Shown here one piece after another: positions 3,981-63,732 of a stretch of DNA of 64,000 nucleotides (the first letter of the stretch is position 1; the number at the start of each line of letters is the position of its first letter). Under the pieces are notes generated by a model, which searched no databases, was not told where the DNA came from, and saw only the letters and a program-made list of their open reading frames with translations. A program made the translations under genes and the position numbers. Origin of the DNA: Candidatus Rokuibacteriota bacterium (GTDB lineage Bacteria; Methylomirabilota; Methylomirabilia; Rokubacteriales; CSP1-6); contig JAHFDK010000012.1 in assembly GCA_023249095.1 (NCBI GenBank), positions 91-64,090 of the forward strand, read 5' to 3'.

Positions 3981-4010
3981 AGCATAACGAGGTACACTCG
4001 GTCACGTCAA
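3981..4010 (-). promoter_or_regulatory. Candidate sigma70-type promoter for fbp
   Basis: Minus strand reads TTGACG (compl. 4005-4010), an 18-nt spacer, then TATGCT (compl. 3981-3986), about 40 nt upstream of the fbp ATG. It sits in an AT-richer 117-bp divergent spacer. Confidence 0.45.
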
Positions 4011-4014
4011 GCAA

Positions 4015-4037
4015 GAAATTTACGGAAGTGAAATTTA
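4015..4037. promoter_or_regulatory. Two 8-bp direct repeats GAAATTTA (15-bp period), candidate SorC/CggR-type operator
   Basis: GAAATTTA occurs at 4015-4022 and 4030-4037. This is just upstream of the fbp -35 on one strand and 22-44 nt before the sorC-like ATG on the other. Confidence 0.35.
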
Positions 4038-4058
4038 TTTCTGGAGGGTGACGCCGGC

Positions 4059-5054
4059 ATGAAATCGGTCTCCCTCGCCTCACGCGAGCTCCGCCAGACG
4101 GTCCACTGCCTCGAGTTGTACTACCGCCAGGGACGGAGCCAGAAGGACATCGCCCGGGCCCTCGGCGTCTCGGCGGCGACGGTCTCGCGTCTGCTCAAGC
4201 GCGCGTTCGACGAGGGCCTGGTCCGTGTCGAGCTGGATCTCCCCCGCCGCGAGCAGCTGGAAGCCGGGCTGGTGGAGCGGTTCGGTCTGCGCGACGCGGT
4301 CGTCGTCGCGGCCGGAGGGCGGGGCGACGTCAAGGAAGAGCTGGGGACCGCGGCGGCGACCTACTTCGAGAAGATCGCCGCCAACGGCCTCCGCGTGGGA
4401 CTCTCGTGTGGGTTCACGCTCTATCAGACGATTCGCCAGCTCCACGAGCGTCGCTTTCGCGACCTGGCCCTCTACCCGCTGTCCGGCGAGAGCACCCTCA
4501 AGCTCGTCGACCTGTTCCCCAATACACTGGTGGGAATGATGGCGGCCAAGTATCGGCCCCACGTGAACGCCTATGCCCTGCCCGTGCAGCATCTCGTGTC
4601 CCTGCGGGAGATCGAACGAGCGCGCCGGCGGCTCCTGCGCGATCCCGAGATTCGTATGATTTACGAGGCCGCGCAGGACGTGGACATCGCCCTGGTCGGC
4701 ATCGGGTTCATCGGCGAGCAGACGCCGGGGTTCTGCTCCCTGGCCGAGTCCTACGGCGTGAGCGTCAAGCGTCTGCGCCAGCTCGGGGTGGTGGGCGAGA
4801 TCAACTACCAGCCGTTCGACCACGAGGGCCGCATCGTGGACCGTCCGGAGCTGCGCGCGCTCATGGGGCGCGTGCTCTCGGTGGAGGGTGACCGGCTCCA
4901 GGCCCTCTCGCGCCGTGACGACCGTTACGTCGTGGCGATCGCCGGGGGCCGAGCCAAGCTCGAGGCGGTGCGCGGCGCGGTGGCCGGAAAATTCATGAAC
5001 GTGCTCGTCACCGACGAGGACGTGGCCGCCGCCCTCCTGCGGCGTGCCGCCTGA
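4059..5054 (+). CDS. SorC/CggR-family sugar-binding transcriptional regulator
   Basis: 331 aa. N-terminal HTH (RSQKDIARALGVSAATVSRLLKRAFDEGLVRVEL) plus a SorC-type sugar-phosphate-binding domain. GGAGGG SD. Divergent from fbp. Confidence 0.8.
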   Translation: MKSVSLASRELRQTVHCLELYYRQGRSQKDIARALGVSAATVSRLLKRAFDEGLVRVELDLPRREQLEAGLVERFGLRDAVVVAAGGRGDVKEELGTAAATYFEKIAANGLRVGLSCGFTLYQTIRQLHERRFRDLALYPLSGESTLKLVDLFPNTLVGMMAAKYRPHVNAYALPVQHLVSLREIERARRRLLRDPEIRMIYEAAQDVDIALVGIGFIGEQTPGFCSLAESYGVSVKRLRQLGVVGEINYQPFDHEGRIVDRPELRALMGRVLSVEGDRLQALSRRDDRYVVAIAGGRAKLEAVRGAVAGKFMNVLVTDEDVAAALLRRAA

Positions 5055-5063
5055 TCGGGTGCG

Positions 5064-6035
5064 CTATGCCCTGGCGCCCGGCACGGACGCTTCCTCGAAC
5101 GCGCCGATCCGTCTGAACTTCTCGTAGCGCTCGGCGACGAGTTCGTCGGGCGACATCGACGCGAGCGGCCGCAAGTGCTCGCGCAGCGCCTCCCGGAGGT
5201 GGCCGGCGGCGCCGTCCCAGTCGCGGTGGGCGCCGCCGACGGGCTCGGGGACGATCGCGTCGATCACGCGGAGCCGCAGGAGGTCGGGCGCGGTGATCCG
5301 CATCGACTCGGCCGCCTCGGGAGCCTTGGCGGCGTTGCCCCACAGGATCGCGGCGCATCCTTCCGGCGAGATCACGGAGTAGATCGCGTATTCGAGCATC
5401 AGCACCCGGTTGCCCATGCCGATCGCGAGCGCGCCGCCGCTGCCGCCCTCGCCCGTCACGACCGACAGGATCGGCGTGCGGAGGGCGGCCATCTCCCGGA
5501 GGTTACGCGCGATCGCCTCGGCCTGGCCGCGCTCTTCGGCGCCGAGCCCGGGGTAGGCGCCGGGCGTGTCGATGAACGTGACGACGGGCTTGGCGAACTT
5601 CTGGGCGAGGTGCATGAGCCGCAGCGCCTTGCGATAGCCCTCGGGGTGCGGCATCCCGAAGTTGCGGGCGATCTTCTCGCGCGTGTCACGGCCCTTCTGG
5701 TGGCCGATCACGACGATCCCCTGCCCTTCGAACCGGGCCAGACCGCCGACGACCGCGGCATCGTCGCCGTAGAGGCGGTCGCCGTGCAGCTCGATGAAGT
5801 CCTCGAGGAGGAGCTTCAAGAAGTCGCGCGTGTGGGGACGCTTCGGATGACGCGCGAGCTGCGTGCGCTGCCAGGCCGACAGGCTGGCGTAGGTCTTCTG
5901 GCGCAAGCGGGCGAGCCGGTCCTCGAGCTTCGCGATCTCGTCACGCGTCCTCGGCAGGTTCTCCTCGGACTGGAGGGCCGCGATCCGAGTTTCCAGCTCG
6001 AGCAGCGGCTGCTCGAAGTCAAGCGCGTCGGGCAT
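5064..6035 (-). CDS. accA: Acetyl-CoA carboxylase carboxyltransferase subunit alpha
   Basis: The conserved sequence starts at [21 protein letters not shown] (ATG compl. 6033-6035). The 66 upstream codons in the track ORF overlap the dnaE 3' end and look spurious. dnaE-accA synteny is conserved. Confidence 0.9.
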
Positions 6036-9000
6036 AGTCCACGCTGATCGCGCCGCGGCCGAGAACCGTCTCGCCCTCGGCAACAAGCTCCTGGCTGCCG
6101 TCCACGGAGAGACCCCGCGCGCGGACGACCACTTCCTGGGCGCCGAGCACCAGGTGGAGGAACACGGGGACCCGCCCGGGATGCTCGCCGCAGAGTTGCC
6201 GCACGGCGGCGAGCGCGCCGCGCGGGTCTTCACCCGGTGTCACGCGGATCCGGCAAGCGCTTGGCTCGCCGGCGGTGGCGCTGTTGCGCGGGCGCCCACC
6301 GGACTCCGCCAGCGCCTGCTCGAGGAGGCGGACGTCCTCCGCGAGCACGACCCGGCCCTTGTCACCGTCGTCCACGCGCCCCCGGACGAGCACGGCCTCG
6401 CCCGAGCGCAGACAGGCGGCCGCCGCCTTGAACGGCTCCGGAAATACCGTCACCTCGACGGCGCCGTCCATGTCCTCGAGGGTGAAGAACGCCATGCGAT
6501 TGCCGCCCTTCGTGGACGTCTCCTTGAGCCCGACGGCGTGGCCGAAGAGGACGACGCGCGCGCCGTGCCCTTTGGCGGCGAGGTCAGCGGACGTCGTGAT
6601 GCCGAGCGGCTCGACGACTTCGCGGTATCGGGCAAGGGGATGGCCAGAGATGTAGAAGCCGAGCACCTCTTTCTCAAACGCGAGGCGCTGATCCGCTTCC
6701 CATTCCGGCGTGACCGCGGCCGGCGCGCTCGCCCGGCCCGGCGCCACCGGCAAGAGCTCGAAGAAGGACGCCTGGCCCTCGGCCCGGTCCCGCTGCTGGC
6801 GCCCTCCGCTCTCGAGCGCCGCGTCGGTGGTGGCCAGGAGATGCGCGCGGGTAAGGCCGAGCGAGTCGAACGCCCCCGCCTTGACGAGGCTCTCCACGAC
6901 GCGGCGGTTCACGAGCCTGAGATCGACGCGCGCGCAGAAATCCTCGAGCGTGTGGAACAGACCCTGGTCGCTCCGCGATCTCAAGATCGACTGCATCGCC
7001 GCTTCACCGACGTTCTTGATCGCGGCCAGACCGAAGCGCACCGTGTCGCCGGCGACGCTGAACTGCACGGCCGATACGTTGACGTCGGGCGGCTCGACCC
7101 GAAGCCCCATCGCGCGGCATTCTTCGATGTACTTCACGATCTTGTCGGTGTCGCCCATCTCCGAGGTCAGCAGCGCGGCCATGAACTCGACCGGATAGTT
7201 GGCCTTGAAGTACGCCGTTTGATAGGCGACGAGCCCGTACGCCGCGGCGTGGGAGTTGTGGGCGGCGATGCCGTTCGCGATGAAGCTCCGAGCGCCCGGA
7301 ACCTCGAAGTCGTACGTCGGCTCGACGCCATCCAGGACGAACCGTTTCGGCCTCGACCAGCCCATTGACGGATCGACCAGGGCGTGCAGCGCCGGCGACT
7401 CGAGGCGTTCCGCCAGATATTCCAAGGTGTCTCGACGGATCCCCCTCTTGCGGCGATCCCTCGCGACGAGCCGGTAGGCGAGCCCCAGCGCTCTGCAGCC
7501 TGCCGTCAAAGTGGAGAAGCGCTTGAGAATCGCTTCGCGCAAGGGCTCTCGGTAGAGATCCGCCGGGACGACATCGACGGTCCCCCGCGCGAGGAGGGTT
7601 CGGGTGCTCGCATATGAGGCTCTGAGCGCGGCGAGGGCCGCCCGCTTTTCTCCCACCAGATGGCAACCGACGAGCTCGTCGAAGCGCACATGGGTCCGTC
7701 GCCCACCAATGAGATTCACCGTGTAGCCGACGCGGCGCCCGCCACGGTACGCGAAGGTCTTTCGATGGATCGTGCACGGAATGGCGAGCTTCAGGAGCAA
7801 GCGGCGAACGTCATTGGCCAGTCCCTCGGAGGATGTCGCGTAGTAGACCGACAGCGTCTTGCGATGAACGCAGCCATCCCCCTGGAACAGCTTTCCGACG
7901 AGGACCGAGATGGCATCTCGATCCCAACCGTCGACGATCACCGGGATCCGCTTGTTGACAGCGATCTTTCCTTGGAGACTACAGTCTCGGAAGAGAAAAT
8001 CGACGGCCTCCGAAGGAGTCGTCCGATCGATGCGGACGGGACGGACCGACGAAGCCTTGGGCCTCGGGCGATGCTCGATGCGTGCAACCGTGTTGGCGAA
8101 CGCCGAGACGATCAGGCTCATGTCCTCGAGTTCGTCCGAGACCGTCGAGTACAGATAGAAGTGGCTGTCGTATCCGAGGCTTCCTTCCGATAGGGCGTAG
8201 CCGAGCAGCGCGGGCAGATGCTCGGGCACCGTCGTCGCTCCGCAGGGGAGCTCACGAGCGACGGCGACAAAGTCGTGGGGAGTGACGTCCTCCGCGTTCA
8301 CCCACCCTCGTTGGGTGAAGATCGGGTGATCGGGCGTGCACCGAAGAGTCATCCCGTTGGCCAGTGTCAGGCGACCGACCTGGCGCCTGCCGCTCGGCCG
8401 GACTCCGAGCGCTCGGAATGCGCCGTCCTTCGTGAGTACGAGGTCCCCGGTCCGCACCTCGGTGATCGGCTTCAGGCTGCCGTCGGCCATCTCGATCGAG
8501 GCGTCCGAACTGAGGCATTTGTTGAAGCCGTATCCCGCGAACTTCTCCATCAGCTCCCAGACGCGCTCGGCCTTCGCGGCGGCGGTGCCGCGCTCGCGGC
8601 AGCCGCCAACGAACTTCTCGCGCTGCTTGGCCATCAGCTCGCGGTCCTTCTTGCCCATGGCGCGGCGCAGGATGTCCGCCTCGCCCATGGTGAACCCCCC
8701 CATCTCCGAGGCGATCTGCATGATCTGTTCCTGGTACACCATGATCCCGTACGTCTCCCGGGTGAACTTCTCCATCGCCGGGTGCTCGTAGGTGATCCTG
8801 GACCGGCCGTGCTTGCGCTGGATGAAGTCGGGGATGAGCTCCATCGGCCCGGGCCGGTAGAGCGAGACCATGGCGATCAGATCTTCGAGCCGCTCGGGCC
8901 GAAGACCGCGGAGCGCGTCCCGCATGCCGGACGACTCGAGCTGGAACACGCCGAACGTCTTCGCCTCGGAGAGCATCTCGTACGTCTTGGGGTCGCCCAG

Positions 9001-10764
9001 CGGCAGCGTGTCCAGGTCGACATCGATGCCCCGGGACTCCTTGATCAGCGCCACCGTGTTGGCGAGGACGGTGAGCGTCCGGAGCCCGAGGAAATCCATC
9101 TTGAGCAGCCCAAGCTTCTCGATCGGGCCCATCGCGTAGCCGGTGATGAGCTCCGGACGCTTGGGGTCCTTGTAGAGCGGGATGTGCTCCTCGAGGGGCT
9201 CGTCGGAGATCACCACGGCGGAGGCGTGCACCGAGGCGTGGCGGGTGCAACCCTCGAGGGTGCGGGCGATGTCCCACAGCTCGCGCACCGACGCCTGGCT
9301 CCGCACCATCTCGGCCAGCGGCAGCGACTTCTGGTGGGCGTCGTCGAGCGTGATGTTCAGCGGGAAATTCGGCACCAGCTTTGCGATCCGGTCGACGTCG
9401 CCGTACGGCATGCCGAGGACGCGCCCGACGTCGCGGATCGCCGCCTTCGCGCCGAGTGTCCCGAACGTGATGATGTGAGCGACCCGGTCGCGCCCGTAGC
9501 GCTCCGCCACATAGCGGATGACCTCGTCGCGCCGATCGTCTGAAAAATCGATGTCCATGTCCGGCATCGAGATGCGTTCCGGGTTCAGGAATCGCTCGAA
9601 CAGCAGCCCGTAGCGCATCGGATCGATGTTCGTGATGGCCAGACAGTACGCGGTCAGCGAGCCCGCGGACGAGCCGCGACCGGGTCCCACCGCGATGCCC
9701 TGCTCGCGCGCGTAGCGGATGAAGTCCCAGACGACGAGGAAGTAGCCCGCGAATCCCATCTTCTCGATGACGGCCAGCTCCTGGGCGAGCCGCGCCTCGA
9801 TGGCGTCGCCCGGACTGGGCCCGTACCGCCGCCGGAGCCCATCATGCGCCAGCTCGTGGAGATAGCTGTCGAGCGTGTGCTCGTCGGGGACGACGTAGCG
9901 CGGCAGGTGGAACTCGCCGAAGTCGAGCGTCAGGTTGCACCGCTCGGCGACCGCCAGCGTGTTACGGCACGCCTCGGGGAGGTCGGCGAAGACGCGCGCC
10001 ATCTCCTCGGCGGACTTGATGTAGAACTCCTGCGTCGAGAAGCGGAAGCGGCTCGGATCGTGGAGATTCGTGCCGGTCTGGATGCAGAGGAGCGCTTCGT
10101 GGGCCCGGGCGTGGCCGGCCTCGAGGTAGTGCGAGTCGTTCGTGCCGACGACCGGCGCTCCGATGGCGGTGGCGATCCGGAGCGTCTCGGCCATGACTCG
10201 CGCCTGCTCGTCGAGCCCGTGGGCCTGGACCTCCATGAAGTAGTGGTCCTTGCCGAAGACCTCCCGATACCAGCCGGCGGTTTCTCTGGCCCGCAGGGCG
10301 TCGCCGGCGCTCAAGAGTCTCGAGACCTCGGAGTTCAGGCACCCGGAGAGGACGAGCAGCCCCTCGGCATGCTGCGCAAGGAGCTCCCGATCCACCCGGG
10401 GCTTGTAATAGAACCCCTCCAGGTACGCCTTCGACACGAGCTTGACGAGGTTCTTGTACCCGGTGCGGTTTCGTACGAGGACCGTCAGGTGGTTGGCACC
10501 CTCGTAGCCGCCGTCCTGCGAGCCGCGTTCGCGACGGCTCCCGGGCGCCACGTAGAGCTCGCACCCGAGGATCGGCTTGACGCCGGCCTTCTGGGCGGCG
10601 AGGTAGAAATCGATCGCGCCGAAGAGGTTGCCATGGTCGGTGAGCGCGATCGCCGGGAACCGGAGCTCCCTCGCCTTCGCGACGAGCTTTTCGAGCTGGG
10701 CCGCACCGTCGAGCAGGCTGTACTCGGAGTGGACGTGCAGATGGACGAAGTCGCTATGCTGCAT
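6019..10764 (-). CDS. dnaE: DNA polymerase III subunit alpha, interrupted by a 421-aa intein
   Basis: 1581 aa. PHP domain start ([13 protein letters not shown]), then the palm/fingers motif GYGFNK...SHAAAY, which is split by the insert. The protein is 1160 aa once the intein is removed. Confidence 0.95.
7255..8517 (-). mobile_element. DnaE intein with LAGLIDADG homing-endonuclease domain (aa 750-1170)
   Basis: Junctions are GYGFNK|[13 protein letters not shown] and ...[11 protein letters not shown]|SHAAAY. Block B is [18 protein letters not shown] motifs are [12 protein letters not shown] and [12 protein letters not shown]. Cys1 codon is compl. 8515-8517 and the terminal Asn codon is compl. 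7255-7257. Confidence 0.9.
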
Positions 10765-60085: not shown

Positions 60086-63000
60086 TCAGCATTCGTTGAA
60101 GCCGCAGGACAGGCACTTCTTGCAACCCTCCTCATAGATGAACGTGGCTTGCCCGCACTCCTTGCAGAGGTCGCCGATCTGCTTTCGCGCCTCGACGGTA
60201 ACGGCCGGCGTCTCGAGCCCGGGCTTTACCTCTCCGATATGCTCCGCCAGCGTCCGCGACAGCGCGTCTGGCAGTGAGAGGATCTTCGTGGGCCCAAAGC
60301 CCGTGGGCTGGCCCCCGCCGATTCGAGAAAGCTGGCTGATAACCTCCTCGAGTCGCCGCTGAGCCGACAGCGGCGATGGCAGCCTCAGGATGAGCGAAAT
60401 CAGGCGTCCGAGAGCTTCTGCGACGGCCATGGTATCGGAGCCGCCCTTGCCGACCTGAACGAAGACCTCGAAGGGCTCGTGCTCGTCGGTTTCGGTAATG
60501 GTGATCCACGCGGTCCCGATCGGGGTCTGGGTGCGGTAGGTCGACCCCTTGAGGCTACGCGGGCGGGGCTTGATGACGGCCTGGCCCGCTGTCGCGGCGA
60601 AGCCGGCGCTCTTGCTCTTCTTCGCCGAGACGCCGACGTTCAGGACTTGCTCGCCTTTGCACCCGTCGCGGAAGACCGTGATGCCGAGGCAGCCGAGCTC
60701 CCACGCGAGCCGGTACGCGCGCGCCACGTCCTCCTCGCTCGCGCTGTTCGGCAGGTTGATGGTCTTCGAGACGCCATTGTCGGTGGAGCGCTGGAAGGCG
60801 GCCTGGTGCCGCACGTGCCATTCGAAGCCGATCTCGTGGGAGGTCTTGAAGACTTCGGACGCACGCTCCGGGAGACCGCGGATCCCGTGGAGCGAGCCCC
60901 GCTTGACGATCTCCTGCATGAGCGCGTCCGAGTAGAACCCCTGCTCCTTGGCGATGCGCTCGAACGTCTCGTTCACGAACGTCAGGACGCGCTCGCCGTC
61001 GGGCTGCTTCACGCGGTGCTCGAAGGCGAGCGCGAAGATCGGCTCGACCCCGGAGGAGCACCCGGCGATCATCGAGATCGTACCGGTGGGCGCGATCGTC
61101 GTGACGGTCGAATTACGCATCGGCCGCTGGTTCTTATAGATCGAATGGTCCCAGTTGGGGAACGGGCCGCGCTCCTCGGCAAGCTTCGCCGACTGATCGT
61201 GGGACTTCTCCCTGATGAAGGCCATCAGTTGGTCGCCGAGGTCGGTCGCTTCCTGGCTGTCGTACGGGATGCCCATCGTGAAAAGCAGGTCGGCCCAGCC
61301 CATGATGCCCAGGCCGATGCGGCGGTTGGCCTTGACGGTGGCATCGATCTGCGGGAGTGGGTAGGGGTTCATCTCGATGACGTCGTCGAGGAATCGAACA
61401 GCGAGCCGCACCACCCGCTCCATCTCGTCCCAGTCGACCGACCACTCACCCTCGTCGTTTCGCCGCGCGAACTTCGAGACGTTGAGCGAACCCAGGTTGC
61501 ACGCCTCATTGGGCAGCAGGGGTTGCTCTCCACATTGATGGATCACGAATCCGTTGGCGATCATTGAGTGGCTTTGCGGCTCCGTGAGGTCGTACACGCG
61601 GTGTACCCCGGCGGGGTCGACGGCCACGACGACGTCGCTGAACTTCTGCCGGTAGAAGCCTCGATACCTCACGTTCTCGAGTCGGCGCTGTTTGACGCCC
61701 AGGAAGCCGACGTCCCGCCGGAACACCTCACGTGACTTCCCGAAGATGCCGAGCTCGAAGAGGACGCCGTCGGACCCGTAGGAACGCTCGCCGTCGGCGG
61801 TGACGTGCCGCGGAAAGAGTGCGACCCGAGGCGCGCGCGAACGATTCATGATGTTGCTCTTGATGCCGAGTTGCAGCAGAAGGAGCTGGACGCCGCGGAG
61901 CAACTCCCGGCTCTTGGACGTCAGCGCGATCCATGAGCTGTTGGACCGCGGGTTGTCGCGGACGGTCCCGTCCGCCGTAAAGAGCGCCTGGAGGAAACCG
62001 ACGACCGCCTCAGGCGGAGCGGCGAACAGGGTCTCGGGAACGCACTTATCCTCGGCGCGCACCGGCCGGACTCCAAGCGCGCGGAAGAAGTCGACGAAGT
62101 ACTTGCTGTGATACGAAAGATGTTGCACGCTCCGCGCCCGCATCACGGGCCGGATGGGCCGACCGTACCAGAGATCCACGATCGCCTTGATCCGCTCGAG
62201 CAGCCCCGCGTCGTCAGCTCCGAACGTGAAACCGAGCCGGCAGTTCTTGTCGCCGGCCCGCAGCCAGCCATCTCCTACGAGCCACCCGAGCACCAGGCCA
62301 AGGTCGTGGCTCCAAGCGTCCGGCAGGTCGTGTCGGTACGCGCGCCCGTTTCGGCCGCGGAACTCGCGAGCGACCTCGAACGGAAGCTTCGAATCCGAGT
62401 TGAAGGAACCCGGATCGCTCTGGATCAGAACCCGATCGGCACCCGGCTTCAGCTCGCCGGCCGGGACCCAGCCGCGCTCGGTCATGAATCGGTGGTCGGG
62501 CGTGCATGTGAGCTCGAAGCCGGCTTTCGTTCGCACCGTCACAGTCTCCCGCTCGCCAGTACAGAACGCCCGGTTGATCGGCAGACAGCCACGGTCATAC
62601 GACGAGAGCGGCACGTCGTTCGTCCCCTCCCACACCATCAACCGGCTCGGCATGAGACGTTGATCGACCTGAACGGCGACGCCGCCCGCGGCATACCGGC
62701 CCACCACGTCCTCCATCCTGAGAAGGCCGCGATCGGACGCGATGAGGGTGTTCCCGGTGATGCACGGATTGGTCGCTTCCACCACGCCGATCTCCGGCGT
62801 CGGGTTGGCGGGGCTCGCGTTGATCCGGTCGATGAACACCATGCCCGGGTCGCCCGTCCGCCACGCGGCACGGACGATCCGGTCGAAAACCTCCTTGGCC
62901 GACAGGCGGTCCGTCACCGCGCCGGTGTGGGGGTTGATCAGGTCATACTCGCCGCCCGAGGCCAGGGCGTCCATGAACCGGTCCGTGGCCGCCACGGAGA

Positions 63001-63610
63001 TGTTGAAGTTGGTGATGCCCCCGTCGAGCTTGCAGTCAATGAACTCGAGGATATCGGGGTGATCGACCCTCAGGATCCCCATGTTAGCCCCGCGACGCGT
63101 GCCGCCCTGTTTCACGGCCTCGGTCGCGCTGTTGAAGACACGGAGGAAGGAGACCGGGCCGGATGCGCGGCCGCCGGTCGATGCGACGAGGTCGTCCTTG
63201 GGGCGGAGACGCGAGAACGCAAAACCCGTGCCGCCCCCTGATTTGTGGATGATCGCGGCCGCCTTGACGGAGTCGAAGATCTCCTCCATCGAGTCGCCCA
63301 CGGGCAGCACGTAACAGGCCGAGTACTGCAGGCCGTTGTCCTTCCCGGCATTCATGAGGGTCGGCGAGTTCGGGAGGAAGTCGCCCTCGATCATGATGTC
63401 GTAGAACGCTGCTGCGACCTCCCTGACCGCGGCCTCGCTCCGCCCGTACCGCGCCTCGCCCGATGCGATCGTCAGCGCCACCCGCCAGCACATCTCCTCC
63501 GGGGTCTCGACGACCTCGCCCCCCTGCCGCATGAGGTAGCGCTCCCGGAGCACCCGCAAGGCAGGCTCGGTCCATTTGCCGACTTTCGCTGGGCGAGTCT
63601 CAGACAGCAT
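60086..63610 (-). CDS. nrdJ: Class II (adenosylcobalamin-dependent) ribonucleotide reductase, interrupted by a 410-aa intein
   Basis: 1174 aa. Contains [27 protein letters not shown] and the finger-loop motif EATNP|..|[16 protein letters not shown]. C-terminal zinc ribbon [13 protein letters not shown]. The protein is 764 aa without the insert. Confidence 0.95.
   Translation of the reverse strand: [1174 protein letters not shown]
61535..62764 (-). mobile_element. NrdJ intein with LAGLIDADG domain and C-terminal Gln (aa 283-692)
   Basis: Junctions are [18 protein letters not shown] and ...[18 protein letters not shown]. Block B is [19 protein letters not shown] motifs are [10 protein letters not shown] and [11 protein letters not shown]. 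Cys1 codon is compl. 62762-62764 and the terminal CAA (Gln) is compl. 61535-61537. Confidence 0.9.
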
Positions 63611-63626
63611 TCCGCTCCTCCTGCTC

Positions 63627-63681
63627 GTACTATATCTTGTGGTGTGGGCGAATCTAGCACGCTGAATCTAGCGTTCGTCAA
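63627..63681 (-). promoter_or_regulatory. Candidate nrdJ promoter with two NrdR-box-like palindromes
   Basis: Minus strand reads TTGACG (compl. 63676-63681), 18 nt, then CTAGAT (compl. 63652-63657). Box 2 (63659-63674, ACGCTGAATCTAGCGT) lies in the spacer. Box 1 (63627-63642, minus-strand CCACAAGATATAGTAC) lies downstream. Centre-to-centre spacing is 32 bp. The core pattern CwAnATnTwG is matched 10/10 by box 1 and 9/10 by box 2. Confidence 0.5.
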
Positions 63682-63703
63682 GAAAAAAGCAAGGAACAAG
63701 GTA

Positions 63704-63732
63704 TCCACCGCGCGTCCACCGTCTGTCCACCG
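63704..63732. promoter_or_regulatory. Three phased direct repeats TCCACCG (11-bp period)
   Basis: TCCACCG occurs at 63704-63710, 63715-63721 and 63726-63732, separated by 4-nt spacers, in the nrdJ / tolC-like divergent spacer about 60-85 nt upstream of the ATG at 63791. Confidence 0.45.

Follow-up and report, generated by a model that had tools for sequence, protein, structure and literature searches.

Can ribonucleotide reductase (RNR) still be made from a gene whose product is interrupted directly before the cysteine of its TNPCGE finger loop, by an intein that ends in Gln and not in Asn? This question is raised by nrdJ in a stretch of 64,000 nucleotides from a Candidatus Rokuibacteriota bacterium (assembly GCA_023249095.1, contig JAHFDK010000012.1), the whole of which was analyzed and is referred to below as the window. 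The gene encodes the precursor of a class II, adenosylcobalamin-dependent RNR with a 410-residue insert. We consider it likely that this insert is a functional, vertically maintained class 1 homing intein, located at the commonest RNR intein site, directly before the thiyl-radical cysteine of NrdJ. The features of the locus are listed below, where A1 is an alignment of 12 diverse allelic inteins.

60086..63610, minus strand: nrdJ precursor, an uninterrupted open reading frame (ORF) of 1174 amino acids (aa); class II adenosylcobalamin RNR with one intein.
62765..63610, minus strand: N-extein, residues 1-282, ending in ...VVEATNP; from the DNA reading and the alignment to 1xje.
61535..62764, minus strand: intein of 410 aa (1230 nt; residues 283-692 of the protein), made up of a HINT splicing domain in which a LAGLIDADG homing-endonuclease domain is nested.
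62762..62764, minus strand: Cys1 (TGC), the N-terminal splicing nucleophile, in block A CITGNTL; invariant in A1.
62492..62503, minus strand: block B T-x-x-H (TPDH within TCTPDH; T88 and H91); T and H invariant in A1.
62261..62290, minus strand: LAGLIDADG motif 1, LGWLVGDGWL (LVGDG), with the acidic D165 at 62272..62270; D and G invariant in A1.
61967..61993, minus strand: LAGLIDADG motif 2, LQALFTADG (FTADG), with the acidic D265 at 61972..61970; D in at least 90% of A1, G invariant.
61535..61597, minus strand: blocks F and G (VYDLTEPQSHSMIANGFVIHQ); from TIGR01443, the DNA reading and the covariation tables.
61532..61534, minus strand: Cys+1 (TGT), the C-extein nucleophile and thiyl-radical Cys of the TNPCGE finger loop; aligns with Cys322 of the solved NrdJ.
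60086..61534, minus strand: C-extein, residues 693-1174, and the stop codon; from the ORF, NCBIfam and the 1xje alignment.

The host protein was identified as a B12-dependent RNR by the NCBIfam profiles NF006417 (1008 bits, cut-off 961) and TIGR02504 (NrdJ_Z; 678 bits, cut-off 400). Pfam matched the barrel and the all-alpha domain of RNR together with a TSCPD domain (PF02867, PF00317 and PF12637), and also LAGLIDADG_3; the C terminus of the precursor is a Cys-rich tail (CKECG...CKKCLSCGFNEC). On the minus strand, the DNA reads GTG GAA GCG ACC AAT CCG / TGC ATC ACC GGG AAC at the N-terminal junction (VEATNP/CITGN) and GTG ATC CAT CAA / TGT GGA GAG CAA CCC at the C-terminal junction (VIHQ/CGEQP). 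This agrees with the first-pass annotation of the window, which had described TNPCGE as split into EATNP, a 410-residue insert at 61535-62764 and CGEQ, with Gln (CAA, 61535-61537) as the last intein residue in an HQ/C junction. Removal of exactly 410 residues in silico gave a gap-free alignment across TNPCGE to the intein-free NrdJ of Thermotoga maritima (PDB 1xje, E 1.5e-121), and both junctions are therefore fixed at the positions that had been claimed for them. In the spliced sequence, Cys+1 falls on Cys322 of STNPCGE, and the equivalents of Cys134 and Cys333 also align. Cys322 is established as the thiyl-radical residue of the T. maritima enzyme, in line with the earlier proposal that the nucleophile following the intein is at the same time the radical cysteine of the NPCGE loop.

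The insert itself has the anatomy of a class 1 intein in all residues but the last. It carries Cys1, the T-x-x-H of block B, an Asp and a His in block F, a penultimate His and Cys+1, whereas the terminal Asn of class 1 is replaced by Gln410, which is the last residue at the junction set by the extein alignment. In block F, the Asp of VYDL is D392 (61591..61589) and the His of SHSM is His399 (61570..61568), with Met401 (61564..61562) two positions further on, at the site referred to below as His+2. Block G, NGFVIHQ, holds the penultimate His409 (61540..61538) and the terminal Gln410 (CAA; 61537..61535). The splicing blocks named in the first-pass annotation (Cys1, TCTPDH and the penultimate His) were all recovered in the DNA reading, as were its two LAGLIDADG motifs with their acidic residues (D165 in LVGDG, D265 in FTADG), the first of which was aligned to the corresponding motif of the TliVMA intein. 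Profiles for the intein N-terminal region (TIGR01445, 32.6 bits, cut-off 24.5) and, despite the Gln end, for the C-terminal region (TIGR01443, 18.4 bits, cut-off 15.6) matched within the insert. PF14528 (LAGLIDADG_3) also scored above its cut-off, with 57 bits over protein residues 535-590, and the Pfam family Intein_splicing reached 31.0 bits, under its curated cut-off of 35.8. Assignment to class 3 was rejected, as Cys1 is present, the WCT triplet is absent, and block F has Asp at position 4 where class 3 would have Cys.

An AlphaFold2 model of the intein (pLDDT 87.7, pTM 0.89) was compared with solved structures using Foldseek. The best matches in the PDB were full-length inteins with a nested LAGLIDADG domain (TliVMA, PhoVMA, PI-PfuI, PI-TkoII and PI-SceI), while I-DmoI matched the middle domain and mini-inteins matched the splicing domain; a sequence search of the PDB agreed with these results. 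The two motifs with their acidic residues and the fold, which matches PI-PfuI, PI-SceI and I-DmoI, agree with the alpha-beta-beta-alpha-beta-beta-alpha core of a LAGLIDADG homing endonuclease. The closest solved structures, the TliVMA and PhoVMA inteins (PDB 7qsu, 7qss and 7qst; sequence E 3e-14, Foldseek E 7e-25, TM 0.59-0.67), share the architecture of HINT and nested LAGLIDADG domains, but are only 18-21% identical, reside in V-ATPase subunit A and have the canonical Asn end. Both the sequence and the predicted fold support the classification of the insert as a class-1-type intein with a nested LAGLIDADG endonuclease.

We calculated Nei-Gojobori dN/dS ratios between the window gene and eight relatives. 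Where computable, the ratio was 0.17-0.28 for the whole intein, 0.15-0.33 for the endonuclease part and 0.10-0.17 for the C-terminal splicing part, as compared to 0.12-0.27 for the exteins in seven of the eight relatives. The N-extein ratio of one relative, L010 (0.53), was left out because a second intein disturbs the alignment, and no ratio was obtained for the intein regions of another, L003, in which dS was saturated. These values indicate that purifying selection clearly acts on all parts of the intein. Within the relatives from Methylomirabilota, intein and extein have diverged to a similar extent, which fits long vertical inheritance and not a recent invasion.

To place the Gln end in context, we surveyed the terminal residues of related inteins. 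The homologue searches covered 5.8 billion proteins and included an exhaustive HMMER search of 1.84 billion cluster representatives, which gave 5978 representatives at E<=1e-3; hundreds of relatives were recovered in all. Among 160 parsed C-terminal junctions at the same site, the terminal residue was Asn in 112, Gln in 34, Asp in 13 and Glu in 1, with the Gln frequencies here and below biased upwards because the samples were seeded with a Gln-ended query. All of the 25 inteins in class-I-type hosts (CSE after the junction) ended in Asn and none in Gln. For inteins in class II hosts, the representatives of 50%-identity clusters comprised 61 with Asn, 18 with Gln (about 20%), 9 with Asp and 1 with Glu. 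A scan of GTDB with one genome per species identified at least 550 loci with a relative, of which the best 80 were examined. Every one of the 80 was inserted at TNP/C(G/A)E, none had a stop codon in the intein region (0/80), and the ends were Gln in 29 (CAA in 22 and CAG in 7), Asp in 27 and Asn in 24. Since both Gln codons are in use, selection appears to act on the amino acid, and on the evidence of these sequences the terminal Gln is kept by selection and is no sequencing error.

The closest relatives, annotated as Rokubacteria, NC10 or Methylomirabilota, all end in HQ/CGE and are up to 85% identical, the best being a metagenome-assembled genome of Rokuibacteriota with 85% identity in the intein. 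The 1174-aa protein itself gave no exact match in a sequence look-up. More widely, Gln-ended members span Methylomirabilota, Chloroflexota, Bacillota, Nitrospirota, Omnitrophota, Planctomycetota, bacteria of the candidate phyla radiation and several archaeal phyla. Cultured carriers are Thermoanaerobacterium thermosulfurigenes DSM 2229, with an intact ORF of 1184 aa and a single intein ending in HQ, and Carboxydochorda subterranea (P0150). The first-pass annotation had regarded inteins with a C-terminal Gln as known but rare. They are indeed known, but at this site they are not rare, given their share of the class II cluster representatives and of the best 80 loci. When those of the retrieved proteins that have several inteins were searched by regular expression for Gln, Asp or Glu ends at further sites, only false positives inside domains were obtained.

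Some further observations were made during the survey. CAA was the codon in 22 of the 29 Gln-ended loci, even at a G+C content of 68-72% (L004-L008, L010 and L031; 68.6% in the window), where CAG would be expected. Additional inteins were present in the same nrdJ gene in L010 (ORF of 1899 aa), L003 (1720 aa) and L019 (1601 aa); in L010, the closest relative, the additional intein lies within the N-extein. All 97 matches from a word-indexed protein search were at most 717 aa long and were mostly fragments at contig ends, whereas full-length intein-bearing NrdJ proteins (about 1200-2400 aa) were seen only in the exhaustive search of representatives.

The literature provides several systems with which the NrdJ intein can be compared. 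Cyclisation is possible for a Gln or Asp at the end of an intein, as reviewed by Mills, Johnson and Perler (PMC4031507), and Gln-ended inteins have been found to splice experimentally (PMC4031507, PMC8229266, PMC8175363). This holds for both precedents named in the first-pass annotation, the PolII intein of Pyrococcus abyssi and the RNR intein of Chilo iridescent virus (CIV). The CIV intein is the nearest in kind, being an RNR large-subunit intein that ends in Gln and splices, and with Asn in place of this native Gln it splices less well (PMC4031507); its host, however, is a class I RNR of a eukaryotic virus and not a bacterial class II NrdJ. Like the NrdJ intein, the PolII inteins of P. abyssi, P. 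horikoshii and Methanoculleus marisnigri combine Cys1 and Cys+1 with a penultimate His and a Gln end, and Gln cyclisation is accepted as their third step. They differ in that they lack an endonuclease and, with 166-185 aa, are mini-inteins, located in another host protein and hyperthermophilic, with Gln as the slow variant; in the case of P. abyssi and M. marisnigri, splicing is slow with Gln and is accelerated when Asn takes its place (PMC4031507). In the P. horikoshii and P. abyssi structures, the block-F His adjoins the terminal Gln, and the product is an aminoglutarimide (PMC8229266, PMC8175363). The PolII Gln inteins were not recovered from the PDB by sequence searches with either the full intein or a constructed mini-intein.

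Other RNR inteins resemble the one in the window in location but not in the terminal residue. Only one bacterial protein is richer in inteins than RNR (PMC4760082), and contiguous inteins of RNRs, such as those in Thermococcales NrdJ and the split NrdA of Dassa et al. (2009), have the identical insertion point (PMC2677866), but their characterised members end in His-Asn where the NrdJ intein ends in His-Gln. Thermococcus NrdJ (P0160) contains a homologous, Asn-ended intein at the same point, and the Pyrococcus-type NrdJ profile NF006207 matches the intein with E 6.6e-39. The RIR1 intein of Carboxydothermus hydrogenoformans, which according to a report cited in PMC4031507 splices in spite of an atypical end, is also an RNR intein, but its terminal residue is Asp.

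Based on this anatomy and these precedents, we propose the following course of events. Cys1 would attack the preceding Pro-Cys peptide bond in an N-S acyl shift, aided by Thr88 and His91 of block B, and the N-extein would be passed to the thiol of Cys+1 to form a branched thioester. Gln410 would cyclise onto its own backbone carbonyl, aided by His399 of block F and the penultimate His409, and the intein would be released with an aminoglutarimide end instead of the usual aminosuccinimide. A final S-N shift would restore the TNPCGE loop, and the active site of NrdJ would be intact only after splicing. Met401, in place of the usual Phe or Tyr, probably makes room for the longer side chain of Gln. 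The nested LAGLIDADG domain, with D165 and D265, presumably is or was the homing endonuclease of a spreading element. Analogy with the CIV RNR and Pyrococcus PolII inteins suggests that splicing occurs and that its third step is Gln cyclisation; autocatalytic excision with ligation of the exteins is also what the intact ORF, the purifying selection and the conservation in cultured organisms would predict.

The role suggested for Met401 rests on a covariation between the His+2 position and the terminal residue. Blocks F and G were tabulated for 229 distinct tails and 190 distinct full-length allelic inteins. Among Gln-ended members, His+2 was aliphatic in 41 of 41 (Met 27, Ile 8, Val 6), whereas Asn-ended members had Phe or Tyr in 91 of 112 and an aliphatic residue in 21 (Fisher p = 6e-22, uncorrected for phylogeny). 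The Gln-ended members also retain the block-F His (56/57) and, for the most part, the penultimate His (44/57). Inteins ending in Asp show a different pattern, with an aromatic residue at His+2 in 35 of 36, Leu for the block-F His in 32 of 37 and Leu for the penultimate His in 31 of 37. Those Asn-ended inteins that are nearest to Gln clades are likewise aliphatic at His+2 (L056, ending in AN, with Met; P0137, HN, Leu; P0167, AN, Ile), and the change at this position therefore looks permissive but not sufficient. According to the secondary-structure string of the structural model, the last two strands (residues 400-403 and 406-409) flank an Asn-Gly turn; if these strands pair as a hairpin, as in known inteins, His399, Met401 and Gln410 would be placed on one face. 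The covariation of His+2 with a Gln end may be new.

A large sister group of allelic inteins ends in ...S-L-D/CGE (L020, L023, L028, L030 and others; P0010, P0018, P0101, P0103, P0105 and P0111); in it, Leu replaces the block-F His as well as the penultimate His, with Ser at the preceding position. Presumably the RIR1 intein of C. hydrogenoformans is a member of this group. Glu-ended members are rare (P0217, VE/CGE), and one small clade of the neighbour-joining (NJ) tree holds LN, ID, VE and PQ ends together. The trees were simple NJ trees on Kimura distances, in which the 16 all-Gln clades represent an upper bound and not a count of events. Between the four ends seen, from Asn (AAY) through Asp (GAY) and Glu (GAR) to Gln (CAR), each step requires the change of one nucleotide only, and this chain is suggestive of a mutational path; every intermediate in it can cyclise, which would explain how the crossing from Asn to Gln is made without a dead Lys or His intermediate. 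We tentatively raise the possibility, which we hold to be somewhat less than an even chance, that a non-Asn end at the RNR thiyl-radical cysteine is a common and stable alternative state with its own structural signature (Gln only with an aliphatic His+2, Asp with both His residues lost), as opposed to a rare, crippled variant. If true, this would provide a rule by which the chemistry of the third step could be predicted from the sequence of an intein or engineered, and a validated His+2 rule would help to select or design inteins whose C-terminal cleavage is slower or tunable.

Could the insert instead be dead, with nrdJ a pseudogene, could CAA be a sequencing error for AAY, or could the true junction be at another Asn? 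We give very little credence to these explanations. A possible sign of decay was seen in a close relative, L081 (ENA ERZ25039492 contig_22978, 4001..7507), where nrdJ was called as two genes and the endonuclease domain contains three successive +1 frame changes, the frame being regained before HQ/CGE; these are due either to indel errors in long reads or to a decaying endonuclease or pseudogene. In the window, however, the ORF is unbroken over 1174 codons, and dN/dS stays well below 1 throughout the intein. An error in the last codon is at odds with the presence of CAA or CAG in 29 independent genomes. An alternative junction could be placed at Asn404, six residues upstream of the end, but throughout the family this is the conserved residue with which block G begins, and the Gly after it is not a nucleophile, whereas removal of exactly 410 residues is what restores TNPCGE. 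Asn404 was therefore rejected as the junction. That C-terminal cleavage proceeds by another route than Gln cyclisation, such as direct attack or hydrolysis at the scissile bond aided by the two His residues, also seems improbable. The review states that 'other mechanisms are possible' for inteins with Glu, Gln or Asp ends (PMC4031507), and a family that ends in Asn, Gln, Asp and even Glu indicates some tolerance of chemistry. Yet it is the Gln-ended members that keep the His residues assisting cyclisation, in the proportions given above, and the Asp-ended members that have lost both. Moreover, the terminal residue is always one able to cyclise, with Ala, Gly or Lys never seen at the confirmed junctions, neither among the 160 parsed junctions nor in the best 80 of the at least 550 loci.

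A further explanation leaves the anatomy as described and adds a function to it, namely that with Gln at its end the intein would complete the third step slowly or only under certain conditions, and would in this way act as a post-translational brake or sensor on the activation of NrdJ, for example if Cys1 and Cys+1 formed a disulfide in an oxidising environment. For the PolII intein of P. abyssi, C-terminal cleavage is about 20-fold and splicing about 3-fold slower with Gln than with Asn (PMC4031507), and a disulfide between Cys1 and Cys+1 blocks splicing until it is reduced (PMC8175363). The NrdJ intein has both cysteines, and Gln has long been retained across many lineages. But Gln does not always mean slow, because the CIV RNR intein splices better with it, no regulation is evident in the sequence, and CAR and AAY are two nucleotide changes apart, a barrier that together with compensating changes accounts equally well for the retention of Gln. 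We therefore regard a regulatory role as unlikely, and return to the functional, vertically maintained homing intein as the preferred explanation. Several points nevertheless weigh against it. The dN/dS values are rough because dS is near saturation (about 1), and decay does occur in the lineage, as in L081, unless the frame changes are assembly errors. Splicing, the glutarimide product and endonuclease activity are predictions from sequence and precedent, and efficient splicing cannot be assumed because Gln is the slower variant in the Pyrococcus PolII inteins. The two homologue samples, both seeded with the Gln-ended query, are not population estimates, and the His+2 covariation is partly phylogenetic and was read from a crude NJ tree.

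Thus, the evidence supports the interpretation given in the first-pass annotation, but less significance attaches to it than had been claimed. There is nothing special about the insertion point, as the site before the thiyl-radical cysteine has been published as the most frequent one for contiguous inteins in class I and II RNRs (PMC2677866). Both this site and the Gln end were known before, and genomes derived from metagenomes commonly combine the two. The first-pass annotation had also made dNTP synthesis fully dependent on splicing. This stands for the enzyme encoded here, but as a statement about the genome it extends beyond the 64-kb window, within which tblastn searches with class I and class II queries found no second RNR. 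For annotation purposes, nrdJ should be treated as a normal, probably functional gene whose product must be spliced, and the Gln end should neither be 'corrected' nor taken as the mark of a pseudogene. For the biology of inteins, this single case adds little, since both the site and the Gln chemistry are documented. The survey is more useful, with Gln- and Asp-ended inteins abundant at one site across bacteria and archaea, each with its own pattern of active-site residues, and with T. thermosulfurigenes and C. subterranea as cultured carriers in which the chemistry can be tested.

Upstream of nrdJ, an Rfam scan of the whole window gave no family at the gathering score, and thus no riboswitch was found. 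The leader (63611..63720, minus strand) contains a direct repeat, GCTAGATTC, in two copies 14 nt apart, followed by CACAAGATATAGTAC immediately before the Shine-Dalgarno sequence GGAGGAG. The leader repeat may be an operator sequence resembling an NrdR box.

The tblastn searches for RNR genes also revealed a second intein in the window, in the gene for the alpha subunit of DNA polymerase III:

6019..10764, minus strand: DnaE (DNA polymerase III alpha), ORF of 1581 aa.
7255..8517, minus strand: DnaE intein, 421 aa; GYGFNK/CLSSDAS... at the N-terminal junction, C-extein beginning with SHAAAYG.

The DnaE intein has a canonical His-Asn end, Ser+1 and LAGLIDADG-like motifs. As it ends in Asn and the NrdJ intein in Gln, the genome holds one intein of each kind.

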